Below are positions 4,387 to 38,888 of a DNA stretch of 64,000 nucleotides, one piece after another. The notes beneath the pieces were generated by a model. That model was not told the origin of the DNA and did not search any database. It was given only the letters and a program-made list of their open reading frames with translations. Source of the stretch: Dehalococcoidales bacterium (GTDB lineage Bacteria > Chloroflexota > Dehalococcoidia > Dehalococcoidales > UBA5760); assembly GCA_028716225.1 (NCBI GenBank), contig JAQUQE010000002.1, positions 140,613 to 204,612 of the forward strand. The letters are read 5' to 3'. Numbering within the stretch: the stretch's first letter is position 1; each line of letters starts with the position of its first letter. The position numbers were made by a program, and so were the translations under genes.

Positions 4387-6072
4387 ATGAACCTACAAAG
4401 ACCAAATGCTAATGATGCCACCAGAACCGCCAATCGATCCAAGAGTGTCGTACCAATGAGCGGATTATGTACCCGGTGTGTCGACGGTTGTACCGGAAAC
4501 TGCGAGGTATTCAAGGCAAGTTTTCGCAGCCGGGAACTGCTCTATCCCGGACGCTACGGCGATATTACTGCCGGAGGTGATAAGAATTACCCCATCGATT
4601 ACTCACACCTGAATATCCAGGGTTATGCTCTGGGTGTCGATGGTCTACCTGACGATGTTGTCGGCAACTCCGATACGGCGATCTTCCCCGAAGTAAACAC
4701 GGAAACAGAGTATGGTTGGAATAAGAAAGTCAGGATGGCTATACCAGTTTTTACCGGAGCGCTGGGTTCTACGGAGATAGCGCGCCGGAACTGGGAACAT
4801 GTCGCCGTCGGTGCTGCTTTGAGCGGGATCACCATCGTCTGCGGTGAGAACGTCTGTGGCATCGATCCTGAGCTCGAGCTGGATGGAAACGGAAAGATTG
4901 TTTTGTCTCCAGATCTAGACCGCCGCATCGAGATATACCGTCGTTACCACCGCGGTCTCGGTGAGATTCTGGTTCAGATGAACGTCGAGGACACCCGTCT
5001 TGGCGTCGCTGAATACGTGAGCCGGAAGCACGGCCTGGACACCATCGAGCTAAAATGGGGTCAGGGTGCCAAATGCATCGGCGGGGAAATAAAAGTAGAC
5101 AGCCTGGAAAGGGCTTTGGAGCTACAAAGACGCGGTTATATCGTAACCCCAGACCCGTCACACCCCATAAACAGAGCATCATTTGAGGATGGCTCACTCA
5201 AGGAATTTGAACGCCATAGCCGTCTCGGCTTTATCGACGAAGAGCAATTCTATGTCGAGATCGAACGTCTACGTGATTTAGGTTTCGGACGCATTACCCT
5301 GAAAACAGGCGCCTACGGACTGCGTGAGCTGGCAATGGCAATCAAGTGGGGCTCGAGAGCCAATATCGATCTTTTAACTATCGATGGTGCTCCCGGAGGC
5401 ACCGGGATGAGCCCGTGGCGAATGATGGAGGAATGGGGTATGCCCAGCCTTTATTTACATTCGGCGGCATATGATTTCGCCAATAGACTCGCCCATAGGG
5501 GAGAGCGGGTGCCCGACATTGCCTTCGCCGGTGGTTTTAGCAGCGAGGACGGCATCTTCAAGGCGCTGGCTTTAGGTGCCCCCTTTGTTAAGGCGGTATG
5601 TATGGGCAGGGCTCTGATGATTCCCGCCATGGTGGGCAAGAACATCGACCAGTGGATTAAGAACGGCGAACTACCCGGTACCGTAAGCCAGTTCGGATCC
5701 ACGCCGGAAGAGATTTTTGTCTGCTACGAAGAAGTTAAGGATTTAGTTGGCGCAGACGAGATGAAAAAAATCCCCATGGGGGCCATTGGAATATACAGCT
5801 ACTGCGAAAAGATGAAGGTGGGACTGCAACAGATAATGGCCGGCGCCAGGCGTTTCAGTATACCATCCATACGCCGTGACGAACTTATGTCGCTCACAGA
5901 GGAATGTGCCAGGGTGACCGGGATTCCCTATCTGATGAATGCCTACCGGGCAGAAGCGATAGATATCCTCGAGGGACGTAACATGAGACCGGAGAGACTT
6001 GTTGATACTAACGTATTCAGTTTATCAGCCGGCTACGGAATTGGTTCCCGTAGAATAAGAACCTATGAGTAA
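4387..6072 (+). CDS. Glutamate synthase-related FMN-binding protein (GltB domain 2-like) with an N-terminal Cys cluster
   Basis: 561-aa ORF with AGGAGG RBS at 4374-4379. Core motifs IDGAPGGTGMSP and FAGGFSSEDGIFKALALGA are typical of the GltS FMN domain family. N-terminus carries CTRCVDGCTGNC (CxxCxxxCxxxC). Confidence 0.75.
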   Translation: MNLQRPNANDATRTANRSKSVVPMSGLCTRCVDGCTGNCEVFKASFRSRELLYPGRYGDITAGGDKNYPIDYSHLNIQGYALGVDGLPDDVVGNSDTAIFPEVNTETEYGWNKKVRMAIPVFTGALGSTEIARRNWEHVAVGAALSGITIVCGENVCGIDPELELDGNGKIVLSPDLDRRIEIYRRYHRGLGEILVQMNVEDTRLGVAEYVSRKHGLDTIELKWGQGAKCIGGEIKVDSLERALELQRRGYIVTPDPSHPINRASFEDGSLKEFERHSRLGFIDEEQFYVEIERLRDLGFGRITLKTGAYGLRELAMAIKWGSRANIDLLTIDGAPGGTGMSPWRMMEEWGMPSLYLHSAAYDFANRLAHRGERVPDIAFAGGFSSEDGIFKALALGAPFVKAVCMGRALMIPAMVGKNIDQWIKNGELPGTVSQFGSTPEEIFVCYEEVKDLVGADEMKKIPMGAIGIYSYCEKMKVGLQQIMAGARRFSIPSIRRDELMSLTEECARVTGIPYLMNAYRAEAIDILEGRNMRPERLVDTNVFSLSAGYGIGSRRIRTYE

Positions 6073-33802: not shown

Positions 33803-33964
33803 TCAGTCGATCTTCTTAAACGAGCTTTTACCCACTTTACAGACAGGACACTTCCAATCATCCGGTATTTCCTCAAATGGCGTACCGGCAGCTATGCCGC
33901 CATCCGGATCGCCGATAGCCGGATCATAAACCCATCCGCAAAATAAGCACTTGTACTTAGCCAT
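33803..33964 (-). CDS. Rubredoxin (53 aa, below the ORF-track size cut-off)
   Basis: Hand translation: [53 protein letters not shown]. Two CxxC pairs and the canonical rubredoxin core. GGAGGA lies 10 nt upstream of the ATG. Confidence 0.9.
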
Positions 33965-34054
33965 CTTTTTTGATTCCTCCTTTTTCTCTGCTACATAGCC
34001 ATGGTTTATTTCGAGTAAGGGAAACCGCCCGGCCTATCATACAGGCCAGACAGC

Positions 34055-34744
34055 TCAATCAACCTTTTCGAATTCACTCTTCGCTGCCCCGCAGACAGGG
34101 CACTTCCAATCGTCAGGTATCTGTTCAAACGGCGTACCGGCAGCTATACCGCCATCCGGATCACCGACAGCCGGATCATATATCCATCCGCAAACCGAAC
34201 ACCTATACTTGGTCATTTTCTTGGATTCCTCCTCTTTTTTCTCTTCTACATAGCTGGGGGCTGTTTTCGGCGTTGTCCCCCGCTTGACCTGATGATAGTA
34301 TTCATACGTCATGCAGGGCTTATCATTCAATACCTCTCCGTCCACTACTTCTCCGATAAAAATAGTGTGGGTACCGACATCCATTTCTCCGGTTACTTTA
34401 GCTTCCAGATACGAGACGGTGTTATCCAAAATCAGCGGTGATCCGGTTTGACCTGATTTATAATTTATGCCCGACAGTTTATTGACTTCCCTGCCTGATT
34501 TGAAGCCGAACTGCCCTATGAAGGACAGAGGAGTATCTTGACCGAGTACCGATACGGCAAATGCGCCGCTTGCTTTGATATATTCCCAGGTTAGATTTGT
34601 CTTATTGATGCTTATGGCAATCGTGGGGGGTTCAGAAGTTATCTGAAAGACGCTGTTAGCGATCTGACCGTTAAGCTTCTCGCCCTTTCGGGATGTCACT
34701 ACATACAAGCCATAACTTAGTTTGTGAAGAGCCTTTGGATTCAC
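34055..34744 (-). CDS. Flavin reductase-like domain fused to C-terminal rubredoxin (high-molecular-weight rubredoxin, Hrb-type)
   Basis: N-terminal FMN-binding split-barrel flavin reductase domain ([10 protein letters not shown]..), an EK-rich linker, then [23 protein letters not shown]. This architecture matches the Hrb partner of FprA described in Moorella. Confidence 0.88.
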
Positions 34745-35225: not shown

Positions 35226-35250
35226 TATAATAATGATTATCGTTATTATA
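35226..35250. promoter_or_regulatory. AT-rich inverted repeat immediately upstream of the Fur-family gene (candidate Fur/PerR-type operator)
   Basis: TATAATAA (35226-35233), 9-nt spacer TGATTATCG, TTATTATA (35243-35250): perfect 8-bp arms. Contains TAATGATTATC, reminiscent of Fur-box half sites. Confidence 0.4.
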
Positions 35251-35612
35251 ATATCAAAAGTAAAAATTTATGTCAATATTATAATAACCCCAAAGATATG
35301 GAAGATATGCTTTATTTAAGAGTAATACCTTGAGCGCCCGAATATCGAATGCCTGGTCAGTATCTGATCCTTGAGACGGCGATTTTAGTCCTCCATTTGC
35401 ATTAGGTGACATCGCTTATGCCATAATCGTGGTAGAGATCAACGACCTGGGCACCGACTTCACCTCCCCAGTGTACTTCTTTACTTCCACTAGTCCTCCT
35501 GAGTTTATTCATTATGCCGGAAGACTCTAACACATGTATAGATGTTTTTGAGTGGAAGGTCAAAAGAATTATAACTCTACCTAAATTAGGGATAATGAGA
35601 TAGAATAAAAAC

Positions 35613-36743
35613 ATGCAATATGAAACAGCATACTCAATCTCACCAGAAGAATTTACACGTCTTTTTGAAGACGGTTATTTAGTTCTAGGACCTCCTAGAC
35701 CAGTGCAGCAGATTACTAACATAACAAGAGGAGTTTTTTGTATTCAAACCAGCAGTGACATTATTAACTCGACCAAGAACACAACTAAAATGCTCATCCT
35801 ACTAAGACATCTCAAAAAGGATAAACAGATTGAGCTCCTTACTGATAATATAACCTTAATAAAAATGGCAATTAACCGCTATCAGTATCAGAATAAACCG
35901 ATAGGAACCCTAATTAGAGCACATTGCATGGCACTTCATCCGACCCAGCAAATCCATCTACAGAAAACCGTCAGCAGTATTAGCACATATTCAGGATGGC
36001 AGATTCAACAAGGAGACACAAAAAATACCCTTCTAATTATTAGCCGAATCCAGTCTATTGAAAAACAAGATATAGAACAGGAAATCAGTAGAATAAGACA
36101 GTTTATGGATGCTCTCTGCTTGATTTATAAAGTTGGCTTCTTTTTATATCACGTTTCTCATGCACCAATATGTCAATTATCCCCCACGGTTTCCTTTGGT
36201 CAAGCAGAAAGAATGTTAGAACCTATCAAAAAAGAGGATATTATCAGAATAGCGGCTCAGATCCAATTATCGAGGGAAATAGCAACAACCATTCGTGGCT
36301 TAAACCAAGCTTATGTTGATAATTACTATGCTAGCCGCCTTGACCGACTCTGGGCAACTGTTGAAGAACTCTTTTCTGGCTCCGCCAATCATTTATTAAA
36401 ATCGGACGAAATAGCAGCAATTTTAAAATCTATCGAAAGTACAGAACTCGTAAATGACAATAAACGTCTGGGAAAATTTGCTGACTTATTAAAGAATCCA
36501 AACCATTTTCCTGCTAAAGGCCGTAATGAACGAATTTCCGACACCATTTCAAAATTATTAAAAAGAAACCGTGAAGAAACATACGATGAGATACGGAAAT
36601 GTTCTGAAATACGCGGAAAATATGGTCATAACATTCCACAGTATTGGCAGCCAATTGATGAAGCAGAAAAATACTTAAGGAATGTACTCACTGATTATCT
36701 GGATTTATTAACATCTAAAAGGGAGAATGACAACAATATTTAA
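35613..36743 (+). CDS. Hypothetical protein in an AT-rich island; C-terminal Rx4H HEPN-like motif
   Basis: 376-aa ORF, AT-rich, with lysine/asparagine/isoleucine-rich composition unlike its neighbours. The C-terminal helical region contains EIRGKYGHN (R at 36612, H at 36627-36629) followed by an amphipathic helix (EAEKYLRNVLTDYLDLL). I recognise no other family signature. Confidence 0.55.
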   Translation: MQYETAYSISPEEFTRLFEDGYLVLGPPRPVQQITNITRGVFCIQTSSDIINSTKNTTKMLILLRHLKKDKQIELLTDNITLIKMAINRYQYQNKPIGTLIRAHCMALHPTQQIHLQKTVSSISTYSGWQIQQGDTKNTLLIISRIQSIEKQDIEQEISRIRQFMDALCLIYKVGFFLYHVSHAPICQLSPTVSFGQAERMLEPIKKEDIIRIAAQIQLSREIATTIRGLNQAYVDNYYASRLDRLWATVEELFSGSANHLLKSDEIAAILKSIESTELVNDNKRLGKFADLLKNPNHFPAKGRNERISDTISKLLKRNREETYDEIRKCSEIRGKYGHNIPQYWQPIDEAEKYLRNVLTDYLDLLTSKRENDNNI

Positions 36744-36841
36744 ATTCAGCATAGACATTACTTTCTAACATTAATTAAGTTTCTTAGAGACTAATTATGA
36801 TTTCCGAACTGACTAACCCTTTTCGGCAATACTCAACAAGA

Positions 36842-36877
36842 AGGCGCCTGATCCTGGAACCAGACGCCTCATTTTTT
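36842..36877 (+). terminator. Intrinsic terminator of the island ORF (copy B of the repeated hairpin motif)
   Basis: AGGCGCCTG (36842-36850) / CAGACGCCT (36861-36869) with the same internal C.A mismatch as copy A, then TTTTTT at 36872-36877. Confidence 0.6.
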
Positions 36878-36900
36878 CGTAATTTAGCTTCAAAACTTTA

Positions 36901-38190: not shown

Positions 38191-38364
38191 CTAGTTTTTT
38201 ATTTTCTCAAAATCGCTCTTGCCTGCCCCACAGACCGGACAAACCCAATCATCAGGGAGTTCATCAAACGGTGTCCCCGGCGCGATATCACCCTCCGGGT
38301 CACCCAGCTCCGGGTCATAGACGTAACCGCAGACGGTACACTCGTACTTATCCAATTTCGCCAT
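38191..38364 (-). CDS. Rubredoxin
   Basis: [62 protein letters not shown] lies 8 nt upstream, embedded in the end of the preceding gene. Confidence 0.9.
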
Positions 38365-38372
38365 TCTAAGCA

Positions 38373-38888
38373 CTACCTCCTTTTCTCTTCAATATAGCTG
38401 GGAGCAGTCCTGGGCGTGGTGCCCCGTTTGACCTGGTGATAATACTCGTAGGTCATAGAAGCCTCATCGCTGATAACATCGGCATCGACGATATTGCCGA
38501 TAAAAATGGTATGACTGCCCACATCTACTTCTTGAATTACTTTAGCCTCCAGATAGGCAACGGCGTTTTCGATAACCAGAGGAGCACCGGTCTTACCTAT
38601 CCTGTAATCAACTCCCTCGAGCTTATCGGAATCCCGGCCCGACTTGAAGCCAAAGCGTCCCACGAAAGAGAGGGGAGTCTCCCGGCGCAGGACAGAGGCC
38701 GTAAAGACCCTGCTCTCCTGGATAAACTGGTGGGTCAGGTTACTCTTGTTGATGCTTACGGCAACCGTCGCCGGCTCGGAGGTTATCTGGAACACGGTGT
38801 TGGCGATTTGAGCGTTGAGCCGATTCCCCTGCTTCGAGGCAACGACATACATGCCATAACCTAATTTATGTAAAGCTTGAGCATTCAC
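38373..38888 (-). CDS. Flavin reductase-like domain protein (paralog of the Hrb N-terminal domain, unfused)
   Basis: Collinear with residues 1-170 of the 34055..34744 product (roughly two-thirds identical by eye). Ends ..SYIEEKRR-stop exactly where the paralog continues into its linker. Confidence 0.85.

Follow-up and report, generated by a model that had tools for sequence, protein, structure and literature searches.

Desulfovibrio gigas encodes its rubredoxin in a separate, co-transcribed gene, and this rubredoxin feeds rubredoxin:oxygen oxidoreductase, a flavodiiron protein. Gene fission and fusion at inter-domain linkers, by duplication and degeneration or by gain of a stop codon, is a general phenomenon. 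For Moorella Hrb, the natural partner is a flavodiiron protein (PMC12288474; Silaghi-Dumitrescu et al., 2003, Biochemistry 42:2806, cited there and in PMC9364112). The locus described here lies in a stretch of 64,000 nucleotides of Dehalococcoidales DNA, analyzed as a whole and called the window below. As in Moorella thermoacetica, its Hrb combines a flavin-reductase-like FMN domain with a C-terminal Fe(Cys)4 rubredoxin domain (Rd1), and the gene lies beside that of a class A flavodiiron protein. Unlike in M. thermoacetica, a free rubredoxin (Rd2), which appears to derive from Hrb, is encoded between hrb and fprA, and the predicted operon opens with a Fur/PerR-like regulator. Literature searches for Hrb fission, for an internal start in hrb and for this duplication found no description.

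The features of the locus are listed in Table 1. Terminator-like sites were sought from the operon promoter to fprA; none was found between the genes and one inside fprA. Because there is a single strong promoter upstream of the perR-like gene and no terminator between the genes, perR-like, hrb, rd2, and fprA would be co-transcribed as one operon, and the predicted promoter likely drives all of it. The best NCBIfam model for the regulator was PerR, at 103 bits far under its cut-off of 180. Hrb has the fused architecture of its type, with PF01613 at residues 7–153 and PF00301 at residues 179–225, and its residues 2–169 match PDB 1i0r at 1e-54. Homology searches returned more than 7900 homologues, with flavin reductase/rubredoxin as source names, and an identical protein in L081 (P0001; from SRR13394437), which an exact look-up of the Hrb sequence had not retrieved. 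FprA scored 595 bits on NCBIfam NF008887, under the cut-off of 635, and is presumed to be the electron acceptor of Hrb and Rd2; hrb and fprA are close neighbors here and commonly among relatives too. The spacer behind hrb can form a hairpin (about 34054–34024, stem of about 13 bp) that is kept in L081, L185, L001, L184, L183, and L134. This hairpin does not fit the consensus of an intrinsic terminator, and its folding energy is unexceptional (the z-score for the whole region is only −1.5).

Table 1. Features of the hrb–rd2–fprA locus and of the second Hrb locus in the window (positions count from the first letter of the window).
Feature	Positions	Strand	Basis or remark
fprA, class A flavodiiron protein, 395 aa	32580..33767	-	metallo-beta-lactamase/ODP + flavodoxin domains
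rd2, free-standing 53-aa rubredoxin, repeat copy 2	33803..33964	-	ORF + Pfam profile
Pseudo-linker, non-coding linker copy 2; putative rd2 5' UTR/RBS	33965..34000	-	GGAGG 33980-33976
Spacer, 54 nt, 3' of hrb stop codon	34001..34054	-	
hrb, 229 aa: flavin-reductase domain + linker + Rd1	34055..34744	-	Pfam profiles
Rd1 domain of hrb, rubredoxin repeat copy 1	34058..34216	-	C-terminus outgroup-like
hrb linker, repeat copy 1	34217..34255	-	GGAGG 34232-34228, 11 nt before Rd1 Met 34216-34214
Fur-family regulator, PerR-like, 130 aa	34827..35219	-	PF01475, E=1.6e-30
Predicted promoter, sigma-70-like, TG-extended, 5' of Fur/PerR-like regulator	35248..35276	-	TTGACA-17-TATTAT, 11/12 hexamer matches
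Second, paralogous Hrb locus, split in linker	38191..38888	-	FR2 + Rd3
FR2 ORF, 171 aa	38888-38373	-	ends ..SYIEEKRR*
Rd3 ORF, different frame from FR2	38373/38364-38191	-	GGAGG 38380-38376, 11 nt before ATG 38364

The original prediction, made from the letters alone, was that a complete rubredoxin gene had escaped the list of open reading frames of this DNA. The gene is there: the reading frame is intact and was missing through the size cut-off alone, and GenBank already holds the identical protein, annotated as rubredoxin (MDD5509637.1). Against Pfam Rubredoxin (PF00301, gathering score 23) Rd2 reached 84.7 bits, residues 3–49 matching profile positions 1–47 of 47, while the NCBIfam equivalog RubredRD gave 88.7 bits, just below the cut-off of 90. 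E-values to solved rubredoxins were 1e-19 to 1e-20 (3.7e-20 quoted); aligned to these structures, Rd2 has a complete aromatic core and all four cysteines (C6, C9, C39, and C42) in the two knuckles C6-L-F-C9 and C39-P-V-C42. These sequence matches are decisive for the rubredoxin fold. A glycine after each cysteine pair (CxxCG, CPxCG) is highly conserved in rubredoxins, though not strictly defining. Rd2 has G10 after the first pair and K43 after the second, hence CPVCK instead of CPVCG. As CPVCKVGK is also present in natural rubredoxins and rubredoxin-like domains of L113, L115, L123, and L158, CPVCK can be regarded as a tolerated variant.

The unusual lysine, the slightly sub-threshold NCBIfam score and the long distance between the Shine–Dalgarno (SD) sequence and the start codon (11 nt in rd2 versus 6 nt in hrb and 8 nt in fprA) could suggest that rd2 is a dead duplicate without function or an assembly artefact. 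However, CPVCK is natural in other rubredoxin lineages, and the two-copy junction is common to seven independent assemblies (the window, L081, L001, L134, L183, L184, and L185). In addition, pairs of Rd2 orthologues differ by 6–8 synonymous versus 0–1 non-synonymous codons, and the same domain is the only Hrb rubredoxin domain in L088–L093. A dead gene or an artefact is therefore hardly credible; judged by its sequence, rd2 is an intact, real and conserved gene, and purifying selection acts on it.

When the repeat was recomputed, positions 33851–33942 and 34103–34194 agreed at 81 of 92 nucleotides, exactly the count obtained earlier by hand. They form part of a direct repeat of 146 nt (33840–33985 vs 34092–34237, 84% identity, period 252), followed by a second piece (33975–33999 vs 34230–34254, 92%, period 255); the periods differ by 3 nt because one codon is missing in the copy. 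The two copies thus are direct neighbors in the same orientation, and their DNA identity goes beyond coding constraint, as in a tandem repeat. The claim that the similarity continues upstream of the rd2 ATG was confirmed as well. It runs 36–39 nt into the hrb linker, including the GGAGG 11 nt before the ATG, and the in-frame read-through mirrors the linker of the fusion, so that the similarity is not confined to the rubredoxin codons. Over the 45 nt before each ATG the local alignment score was 49, compared to a mean of 18.6 and a maximum of 37 in 5000 shuffles (p ≤ 2e-4), and the non-coding linker copy is identical to the hrb linker at 35 of 38 positions. Scoring all GGAGG..ATG sites of the window (n = 29) against the hrb linker gave 90 for the query itself, 49 for rd2 and 40 for one further site, with all others at 18 or less. 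The similarity upstream of the rd2 ATG therefore goes beyond generic RBS likeness. In four other two-copy genomes the pseudo-linker carries frame-breaking indels (+1 in L001/L184, +1 in L183, −2 in L134), while GGAGG and ATG are retained, at a spacing of 9 nt in L134; because of these indels we take the pseudo-linker to be untranslated. Rd1 and Rd2 also have derived residues in common (DPA.G, IAAG, DDWKC, and ..ESKK in the linker) that other Hrb lineages lack, and over codons 1–42 they are mutually closest (105–107 of 126 identical positions, versus at most 99 to other Hrb).

The similarity of the two copies is not uniform along their length. Up to codon 42, Rd1 and Rd2 agree at 85% of their nucleotides; over the last 11 codons the figure is only 45%, with 15 of 33 nucleotides and a single one of 11 third positions identical, and the breakpoint at codon 42 is significant (max-chi2 permutation, p = 0.0005). 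In the window, homology 3' of the two stop codons was not significant (p = 0.27), and no significant similarity to hrb was found upstream of GCTATGTAG. As the homology ends at these points, a textbook tandem-duplication junction cannot be demonstrated. The spacer was compared with the 3' end of the flavin-reductase domain; this gave no significant similarity for the window (p~0.06) or for L183 (p~0.74), but did so for L134 (p~0.001), where the homology exceeds that of the window by 17 nt or more on its 5' side. Remnants of a decayed flavin-reductase 3' end may be present in the spacer. Given that neither spacer nor post-stop homology is significant in the window, we make no claim on the exact boundaries of the duplication. 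The proposed unit of linker plus rubredoxin stands as far as paralogy and linker homology are concerned; a clean one-step event is not what the break at codon 42 and the missing homology after the stop codons describe.

The C-terminal change from Rd1 to Rd2 shifts the net charge from −4 to −1. No donor for the 3' end of rd2 was found among the Hrb rubredoxin domains of 86 loci (best 21/33 nt), nor among CPVCKVGK-encoding metagenome stretches (89 loci), where L134 was the only true relative; Rd3 of the same window was compared and is not a donor either. Two candidates with 24/33 nt, L104 and L162, were rejected, as their protein family is unrelated and the search pattern had favored them. A compensated frameshift behind the diverged tail was also dismissed, since by eye shifted alignments were no better and codon counts are equal.

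The mosaic could be a chimera, in which a rubredoxin gene of older and independent origin, sited between hrb and fprA, had its 5' two-thirds and upstream region overwritten by conversion from hrb. The sharp identity break, third positions that look saturated over the last 11 codons and the absence of homology behind the stop codons would agree with this, and L021 is a case of an unrelated rd downstream of hrb. Conversion between the copies has evidently been active in L134, in which Rd1 carries A2 and L7 as in Rd2 and a flavin-reductase-like tract has been restored. Nevertheless, L002 and L024, the nearest outgroups, lack an rd between the two genes, conversion would need to reach non-homologous upstream DNA to make the pseudo-linker, and a related 3' end is absent from 80 genome loci, 68 protein matches and one metagenome scan (best 21/33 and 24/33). 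We consider the chimera quite improbable.

A duplication of full-length hrb, or of a much longer part of it, followed by stepwise loss of the second flavin-reductase domain until a linker remnant and Rd2 were left, has more in its favor; it would lead to the same outcome, but from an event that was not partial. In L087, 120 nt of flavin-reductase sequence lie in frame ahead of the Rd2-type gene, the homology in L134 extends further 5' as described above, a tandem hrb-hrb-fprA arrangement is known in L049 and L060, and at the second locus FR2 erodes by deletions while Rd3 stays intact. On the other hand, the period of the repeat is merely 252–255 nt and the spacer of six genomes is without significant flavin-reductase homology. 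The extra homology in L134 is nested among decayed lineages and resembles a secondary conversion tract. The DNA upstream of the L087 remnant is unrelated and contains no Rd1 end; its 170 nt gave no match among the sequences compared. The longer duplication thus seems unlikely, even though less so than the chimera, and we prefer a duplication of the 3' end of hrb.

Among 80 GTDB loci, rd2 was found only in L001. In the nearest outgroups, whose FprA is 77% identical, hrb is followed by fprA with no rd in the gap of about 43–54 nt. Third positions differ between Rd1 and Rd2 at 14 of 42 sites (33%); in the flavin-reductase domain the differences amount to 16–18 of 165 (10–11%) within the clade and 90–97 of 164 to the outgroups. 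Since seven assemblies have the duplication, and since the copies diverge by 33% compared to 10–11% between lineages, these data date the event as old, before the divergence of the seven two-copy lineages. The comparison with orthologous loci that had been suggested for dating therefore upheld a paralogue from the end of hrb, missing from the outgroups, and spoke against a private or recent event.

The contigs L088–L093 have a single copy, with an Rd2-type domain as the sole rubredoxin domain of Hrb. They miss exactly the block between two GCTATGTAG 9-mers, and single- and two-copy alleles are thus one 252-nt block apart. Such a block flanked by a 9-mer is also what a microhomology insertion would leave, and the same 9-mer marks where significant homology stops in the window; the single-copy Hrb might then be ancestral, and a foreign linker-Rd1-stop block would have been inserted in its linker, splitting the fusion. 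In neighbor-joining (NJ) trees of the flavin-reductase domain and fprA, rooted with L002/L024, the single-copy lineage was nested within the two-copy lineages, as sister to the two-copy L184 in 474 of 500 bootstraps, and monophyly of the two-copy genomes, which the insertion requires, was recovered in 0 of 500; these trees draw on some 1.7 kb of flanking DNA taken from metagenome bins, and recombination is evident there (quartet conflict). While a quartet analysis of the flavin-reductase domain only gave no resolution (7:5:2 informative sites), the polarity was settled by adding fprA and more taxa. Furthermore, the C-terminus of Rd1 fits the outgroup consensus and the tail of Rd2 is the derived state. 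Clade-specific residues are common to Rd1 and Rd2, hence Rd1 is not foreign, and the closest possible donor reaches only 83%. An ancestral single copy is accordingly very improbable. By these trees, a deletion in one nested sublineage removed the 252-nt Rd1 block and re-fused Hrb to the diverged Rd2.

The linker signal is not peculiar to this locus. GGAGG is present in the linker of 51% of 80 hrb genes, compared to 18% in a synonymous-recoding null, and GGAGG and GAG codons in the Hrb linker are in excess at synonymous sites. Of 80 species, 63 retain the methionine of the rubredoxin domain (67 when GTG and TTG are counted), and in 8 of the 80 Hrb is split exactly at the linker SD+ATG by nonsense mutation. 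Orthologues of FR2/Rd3 adjoining sufD are fused in most relatives, and L088 and L183 retain only remnants of FR2 together with an intact Rd3. In rd2, the GGAGG and ATG of the linker form the only plausible start signal. Independent translation of the rubredoxin part of hrb, which the original prediction had raised, thereby gains comparative support. A conserved bifunctional linker, in which a selected SD+ATG would let hrb mRNAs produce, besides the fusion, a free rubredoxin through internal initiation, would explain the synonymous GGAGG/GAG excess, the kept methionine and the repeated independence of the domain in Dehalococcoidia. We offer this tentatively and regard it as doubtful rather than probable.

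Taken together, we give a probability of about 0.7 to the whole account, i.e., that rd2 was born from a duplication of the 3' end of hrb, reused the linker RBS, serves as an electron shuttle and was later shaped by conversion and deletion. The head-to-tail duplication of the hrb 3' end between hrb and fprA would have taken place in an ancestor shared by a small set of Dehalococcoidales species. We infer that the duplicated piece comprised the inter-domain linker together with the rubredoxin domain, if not more, with a period that today is 252–255 nt. The copy would have needed no new expression signals, as GGAGG and the Met codon of the linker could become its RBS and start codon, and the sequence upstream of them would have decayed to a non-coding spacer. 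Subsequently, the C-terminus of Rd2 would have diverged strongly while short gene-conversion tracts held the 5' two-thirds similar, and in the nested sublineage recombination between the linker copies would have removed the Rd1 block, leaving Hrb with the diverged paralogue. Rd2 is probably a free electron carrier for FprA. As a diffusible one-electron carrier it might be fed by Hrb (NAD(P)H -> FMN -> Fe(Cys)4) or by other reductases, and might pass electrons on for O2/NO reduction to FprA, and perhaps also to enzymes of the rubrerythrin type. The protein is an ordinary rubredoxin and its oxygen/NO-detoxification module a familiar one, and biochemical surprises are not likely.

The value of the locus is evolutionary, as gene birth, domain liberation and re-capture are staged across closely related genomes. 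The stages captured are the fused ancestor, a partial duplicate with a putatively linker-derived RBS, upstream decay, divergence of the free copy and re-fusion by deletion, after which Hrb ends up with its own diverged paralogue as a domain. The FR2/Rd3 locus in the same window arrived at an equal end-state by frameshift. Annotators should be aware that genuine redox genes of 53 aa can be hidden by size cut-offs, and that Hrb may be called fused from profile or tblastn matches despite a stop codon in the linker.

Compared to classical rubredoxins (among them Clostridium pasteurianum 4rxn/5rxn/1iro and Pyrococcus furiosus 1brf), Rd2 is alike in its 53 residues, its predicted iron site (CxxCG...CPxC) and its aromatic core; it differs in having lysine for the near-universal glycine after the second cysteine pair and a net charge of about −1. 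Its tail KVGK is of the Val44 type, in contrast to the Ala44-type GAAK of the parent domain; residue 44 is said, from work attributed to Eidsness et al. in 1999, to shift the reduction potential of rubredoxin by tens of mV. As in the D. gigas pair and in the E. coli flavorubredoxin NorV, where the domain is fused and the likeness to our locus is a domain-level match, a rubredoxin module would feed a flavodiiron protein. Unlike in these systems, rubredoxin is here both free and fused, the fusion partner is the reductase and not the flavodiiron protein, and the free form is a paralogue of the fused one. As in gene fission generally, a domain of a fusion protein turned into an independent gene, and relatives show the split as well as the fused form. 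The difference is that fused hrb genes themselves carry the conserved linker SD+ATG, and therefore duplication, frameshift and nonsense mutation could each set free a rubredoxin that is translatable with no need for new signals. The family-wide linker SD+ATG thus represents a concrete, testable case of a linker that makes a domain “ready to leave” its fusion.

The operon that carries hrb, a fusion of a flavin-reductase domain, a linker and a rubredoxin domain (Rd1), reads on the minus strand as promoter, Fur/PerR-like regulator gene, hrb, spacer, pseudo-linker (a linker copy upstream of the next ATG), the small rubredoxin gene rd2 and fprA (see table). A single promoter was found, upstream of the regulator gene, and no terminator was found between the genes from the regulator through fprA. 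The rd2 ORF is intact as predicted; its product reaches 84.7 bits against the Pfam Rubredoxin profile (cut-off 23), matches solved rubredoxins at 1e-19 to 1e-20 and retains all four iron-ligating cysteines, leaving the iron site intact. As an identical protein is already in GenBank (MDD5509637.1, "rubredoxin [Dehalococcoidales bacterium]"), rd2 was missing from the first ORF track only through the length cut-off. Downstream of the preceding stop, translation could start no earlier than at the ATG at 33964. Orthologues of Rd2 differ at 6–8 synonymous versus 0–1 non-synonymous codons, and the gene is under purifying selection and appears to be functional.

Features of the hrb operon and of the paralogous Hrb locus near sufD/sufC
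Feature	Position	Strand	Remark
Promoter, sigma-70-like	35276-35248	-	sequence match
Fur/PerR-like regulator gene	35219-34827	-	
hrb	34744-34055	-	flavin-reductase domain, Glu/Lys-rich linker, C-terminal rubredoxin domain Rd1
Spacer, 54 nt	34054-34001	-	
Pseudo-linker, 36 nt	34000-33965	-	reads 12 residues in frame
rd2, rubredoxin ORF	33964-33803	-	53 codons
Last 11 codons of rd2	33838-33806	-	anomalously diverged from Rd1
fprA, class A flavodiiron gene	33767-32580	-	35 nt past rd2
FR2, flavin-reductase ORF	38888-38373	-	171 aa, ending ..SYIEEKRR*; paralogous Hrb
Rd3, rubredoxin ORF	38364-38191	-	other frame than FR2; ATG 38364, GGAGG 11 nt upstream

Two further features of this region were observed. 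A hairpin of about 13 bp (GCUGUCUGGCCUGU-AUG-AUAGGCCGGGCGGU; 34054-34024, minus strand) directly follows the hrb stop codon and is kept in all genomes carrying both Rd1 and rd2, the changes in L134 and L183 being wobble-compatible; it does not fit the consensus intrinsic terminator and, lying between hrb and rd2, could be an attenuator or an element for mRNA processing or stability. A low-GC segment of about 1.5 kb (35230-36900; 36% vs. 52% window average) separates dnaN from the perR-like gene; it holds a 376-aa ORF in the opposite orientation to the perR-like gene (35613-36743, plus) that has no Pfam or PADLOC match. In L088 and L183 this segment is absent and perR directly follows dnaN (~125 nt); the segment resembles a lineage-specific insert of foreign origin.

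The relation of rd2 to hrb was examined by aligning both copies. The hand count of 81 matches over 92 core positions was exact on recount, and the similarity was not confined to rubredoxin codons. A repeat search returned two direct repeats, 33840-33985 vs. 34092-34237 (84%) and 33975-33999 vs. 34230-34254 (92%), which MAFFT united with one codon missing. Upstream of the rd2 ATG, homology spans the whole hrb linker up to the 9-mer GCTATGTAG (33999-33991 vs. 34254-34246), and both copies have GGAGG 11 nt upstream of the ATG. Local alignment of the 45 nt preceding each ATG scored 49, above all of 5000 shuffles (mean 18.6, maximum 37), bearing out the predicted similarity through the Shine-Dalgarno (SD) sequence; when all 29 GGAGG..ATG sites of the window were scored, the query itself gave 90, rd2 49 and another site 40, the rest being at most 18.

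The repeat has a mosaic structure: 24 of 160 aligned positions differ between the 9-mer and rubredoxin codon 42, against 18 of 33 in the last 11 codons, including 10 of 11 third positions. A maximum-chi-square scan locates the break at codon 42 (permutation p = 0.0005). Since Rd1 retains the family-consensus tail, the differing Rd2 tail is the derived state; it shows a charge reversal and carries Lys for Gly43, a Val44-type for an Ala44-type residue and a net charge of -1 for -4, and every Rd2 orthologue, whether free or part of a fusion, keeps it unchanged. Lys following CPVC is unusual, yet recurrent in other natural rubredoxins. Residue 44 of rubredoxins influences the reduction potential, and the changed tail plausibly alters both this potential and partner preference. 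No donor was found among the Hrb rubredoxin domains and CPVCKVGK-encoding metagenome stretches compared. The same metagenome scan repeatedly hit an apparently uncharacterised family of proteins of ~160–220 aa, unrelated to Hrb, whose C-terminal end carries a rubredoxin-like knuckle, W-R-C-x-A-C-[KR]-W-L-Y-K, and then x-S-F-E-Q-V (L099, L114, L117, L121, L126, L132, L137, L138, L141, L143, L146, L162, L166, L176 and L177).

A short duplication, of linker and rubredoxin or slightly more, is the leading model for the origin of rd2. No significant alignment was obtained 3' of the two stop codons, and the similarity of the window's spacer to the flavin-reductase 3' end was not significant (p = 0.06). 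Duplication of a longer part or all of hrb followed by decay appears rather unlikely, even though homology in L134 reaches at least 17 nt past the 9-mer and, in L087, 120 nt of flavin-reductase sequence lie in frame ahead of an Rd2-type gene, with unrelated DNA further upstream. L087 represents a third allele type. Its gene was called as an 84-aa ORF (1-441), since the flavin-reductase 3' end and linker still contribute 31 in-frame codons before the Met, and the 170 nt further upstream had no match among the loci and sequences compared. Whole-gene tandem duplication of hrb also occurs: L049 (3300-4678) and L060 (3299-4672), both Dehalococcoidales, have two full-length hrb genes upstream of fprA, the upstream copy having 51–55% identity to the window's flavin-reductase domain.

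The arrangement hrb, spacer, pseudo-linker, rd2 and fprA, with the same spacer and hairpin, was found in seven independent assemblies (the window, L081, L001, L134, L183, L184 and L185); of the 80 species-level genomes that have a relative of Hrb, L001 alone has rd2. In L002 and L024, the nearest loci with orthologous fprA (77% FprA identity), fprA directly follows hrb, and in L021 an unrelated rd lies downstream of hrb. Over codons 1–42, Rd2 is nearest to the Rd1 of its own clade (105–107 of 126 positions; any other Hrb at most 99), and clade-specific residues are common to both. Third positions differ at 14 of 42 codons (33%) between Rd1 and Rd2, at 16–18 of 165 (10–11%) for the flavin-reductase domain within the clade and at 90–97 of 164 (55–59%) to L002/L024, which places the duplication after the L002/L024-like split and well ahead of the radiation of the present species group. 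It is neither recent nor private. Outside the clade, the most similar Hrb proteins (81–83% identity; P0019 and P0011, 81%) are those of L082-L086, encoded with flavodoxin, rubrerythrin, GyrI-like, Fe-SOD, AhpC/redoxin and COQ7-like genes, sometimes also catalase-peroxidase and desulfoferrodoxin-N; these oxidative-stress clusters contain neither fprA nor a free rubredoxin.

The Rd2 cluster at 90% identity also holds two 228-aa Hrb proteins, P0190 and P0193, whose rubredoxin domain matches Rd2 at 100% identity. These proteins are encoded on six contigs (L088-L093) that share the dnaN/perR/hrb/fprA synteny, have no separate rd and, compared with the window, lack precisely the 252 nt lying between the two GCTATGTAG copies. 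If this form were ancestral, the Rd1 block would have been inserted later; the topology needed for this appeared in 0 of 500 bootstraps, making it very improbable. In neighbor-joining trees built from flanking flavin-reductase and fprA sequences with L002/L024 as outgroup, the single-copy lineage is nested among two-copy lineages, with L184 as its sister in 474 of 500 bootstraps. The single-copy form therefore arose secondarily, through a deletion by recombination between linker copies. The Hrb of L088-L093 thus carries its own diverged paralogue as rubredoxin domain. As Rd2 is the sole rubredoxin domain there and under purifying selection, this is indirect evidence that it is able to function with the Hrb flavin domain as well as with FprA. 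In L134, short conversion tracts are seen: its Rd1 has A2 and L7 as in Rd2, and its second copy has restored CCGAAAACAGCCACCAGCTATGTAG. Conversion offers one explanation for the 5' two-thirds of the copies staying closer than the tail. The original prediction, that linker and rubredoxin were duplicated, is right in essence, including the linker-derived ribosome binding site, and was too simple on age, on the unit boundaries (codon-42 breakpoint, no significant homology past the stops) and on later history (secondary deletion).

The pseudo-linker has gained 1 nt in L001/L184 and in L183 and lost 2 nt in L134 (SD-ATG spacing 9 instead of 11 nt), with GGAGG and ATG kept, and is not translated. 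We also surveyed the linkers of 80 hrb genes against the same peptides recoded with hrb codon usage. The rubredoxin domain opens with ATG in 63 and with GTG/TTG in 4 genes, and GGAGG occurs at -20 to -4 in 51% (null 18%), the commonest SD-ATG spacing being 11 nt. Mean anti-SD duplex energy of the linker was -9.4 kcal/mol vs. -6.1 in the null (Wilcoxon p = 4e-12), and Glu was encoded by GAG in 71% of linker codons vs. 46% elsewhere (Fisher p = 4e-9), p-values that overstate independence because the loci are related. The linker energy equals that of true hrb starts (-9.2), and in 42 of 80 genes the linker holds the strongest anti-SD site of the entire CDS. In eight of the 80 species (L022, L048, L052, L053, L054, L061, L065 and L072) in-frame stop codons interrupt the linker at differing positions (around locus positions 4490-4530 or equivalent); in seven a strong SD and the conserved ATG follow, giving a canonical two-gene arrangement, and in L053 the rubredoxin part has no start codon. 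As tblastn calls these loci fused, similarity-based annotation would miss the split. The window's paralogous Hrb (FR2/Rd3) is split at the same place; in most relatives its orthologue is fused. L088 and L183 retain only deletion remnants of FR2, together with an intact Rd3 and a linker remnant. Duplication (rd2), frameshift (FR2/Rd3) and nonsense mutation (linker stops) thus each freed a rubredoxin domain via the same pre-existing signal. That this signal also serves an internal start within intact hrb is a tentative proposal; alternatively, it persists through lineages toggling between split and fused states, or is kept for some other role.

Under oxidative or nitrosative stress the operon would be derepressed, and electrons from NAD(P)H would pass through Hrb and its tethered Rd1 to FprA. 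Free Rd2 may provide an extra diffusible route, which might extend to rubrerythrin-type enzymes, one of them encoded at 41448-40918. What is worth following is the surrounding evolutionary series and the conserved SD and ATG in the Hrb linker; rd2 itself is a rubredoxin in an Hrb-FprA module, which is of a known kind. In Moorella, Hrb carries FMN together with an Fe(Cys)4 domain and has a flavodiiron protein as natural partner (PMC12288474; Silaghi-Dumitrescu et al. 2003, cited in PMC9364112 and PMC12288474).
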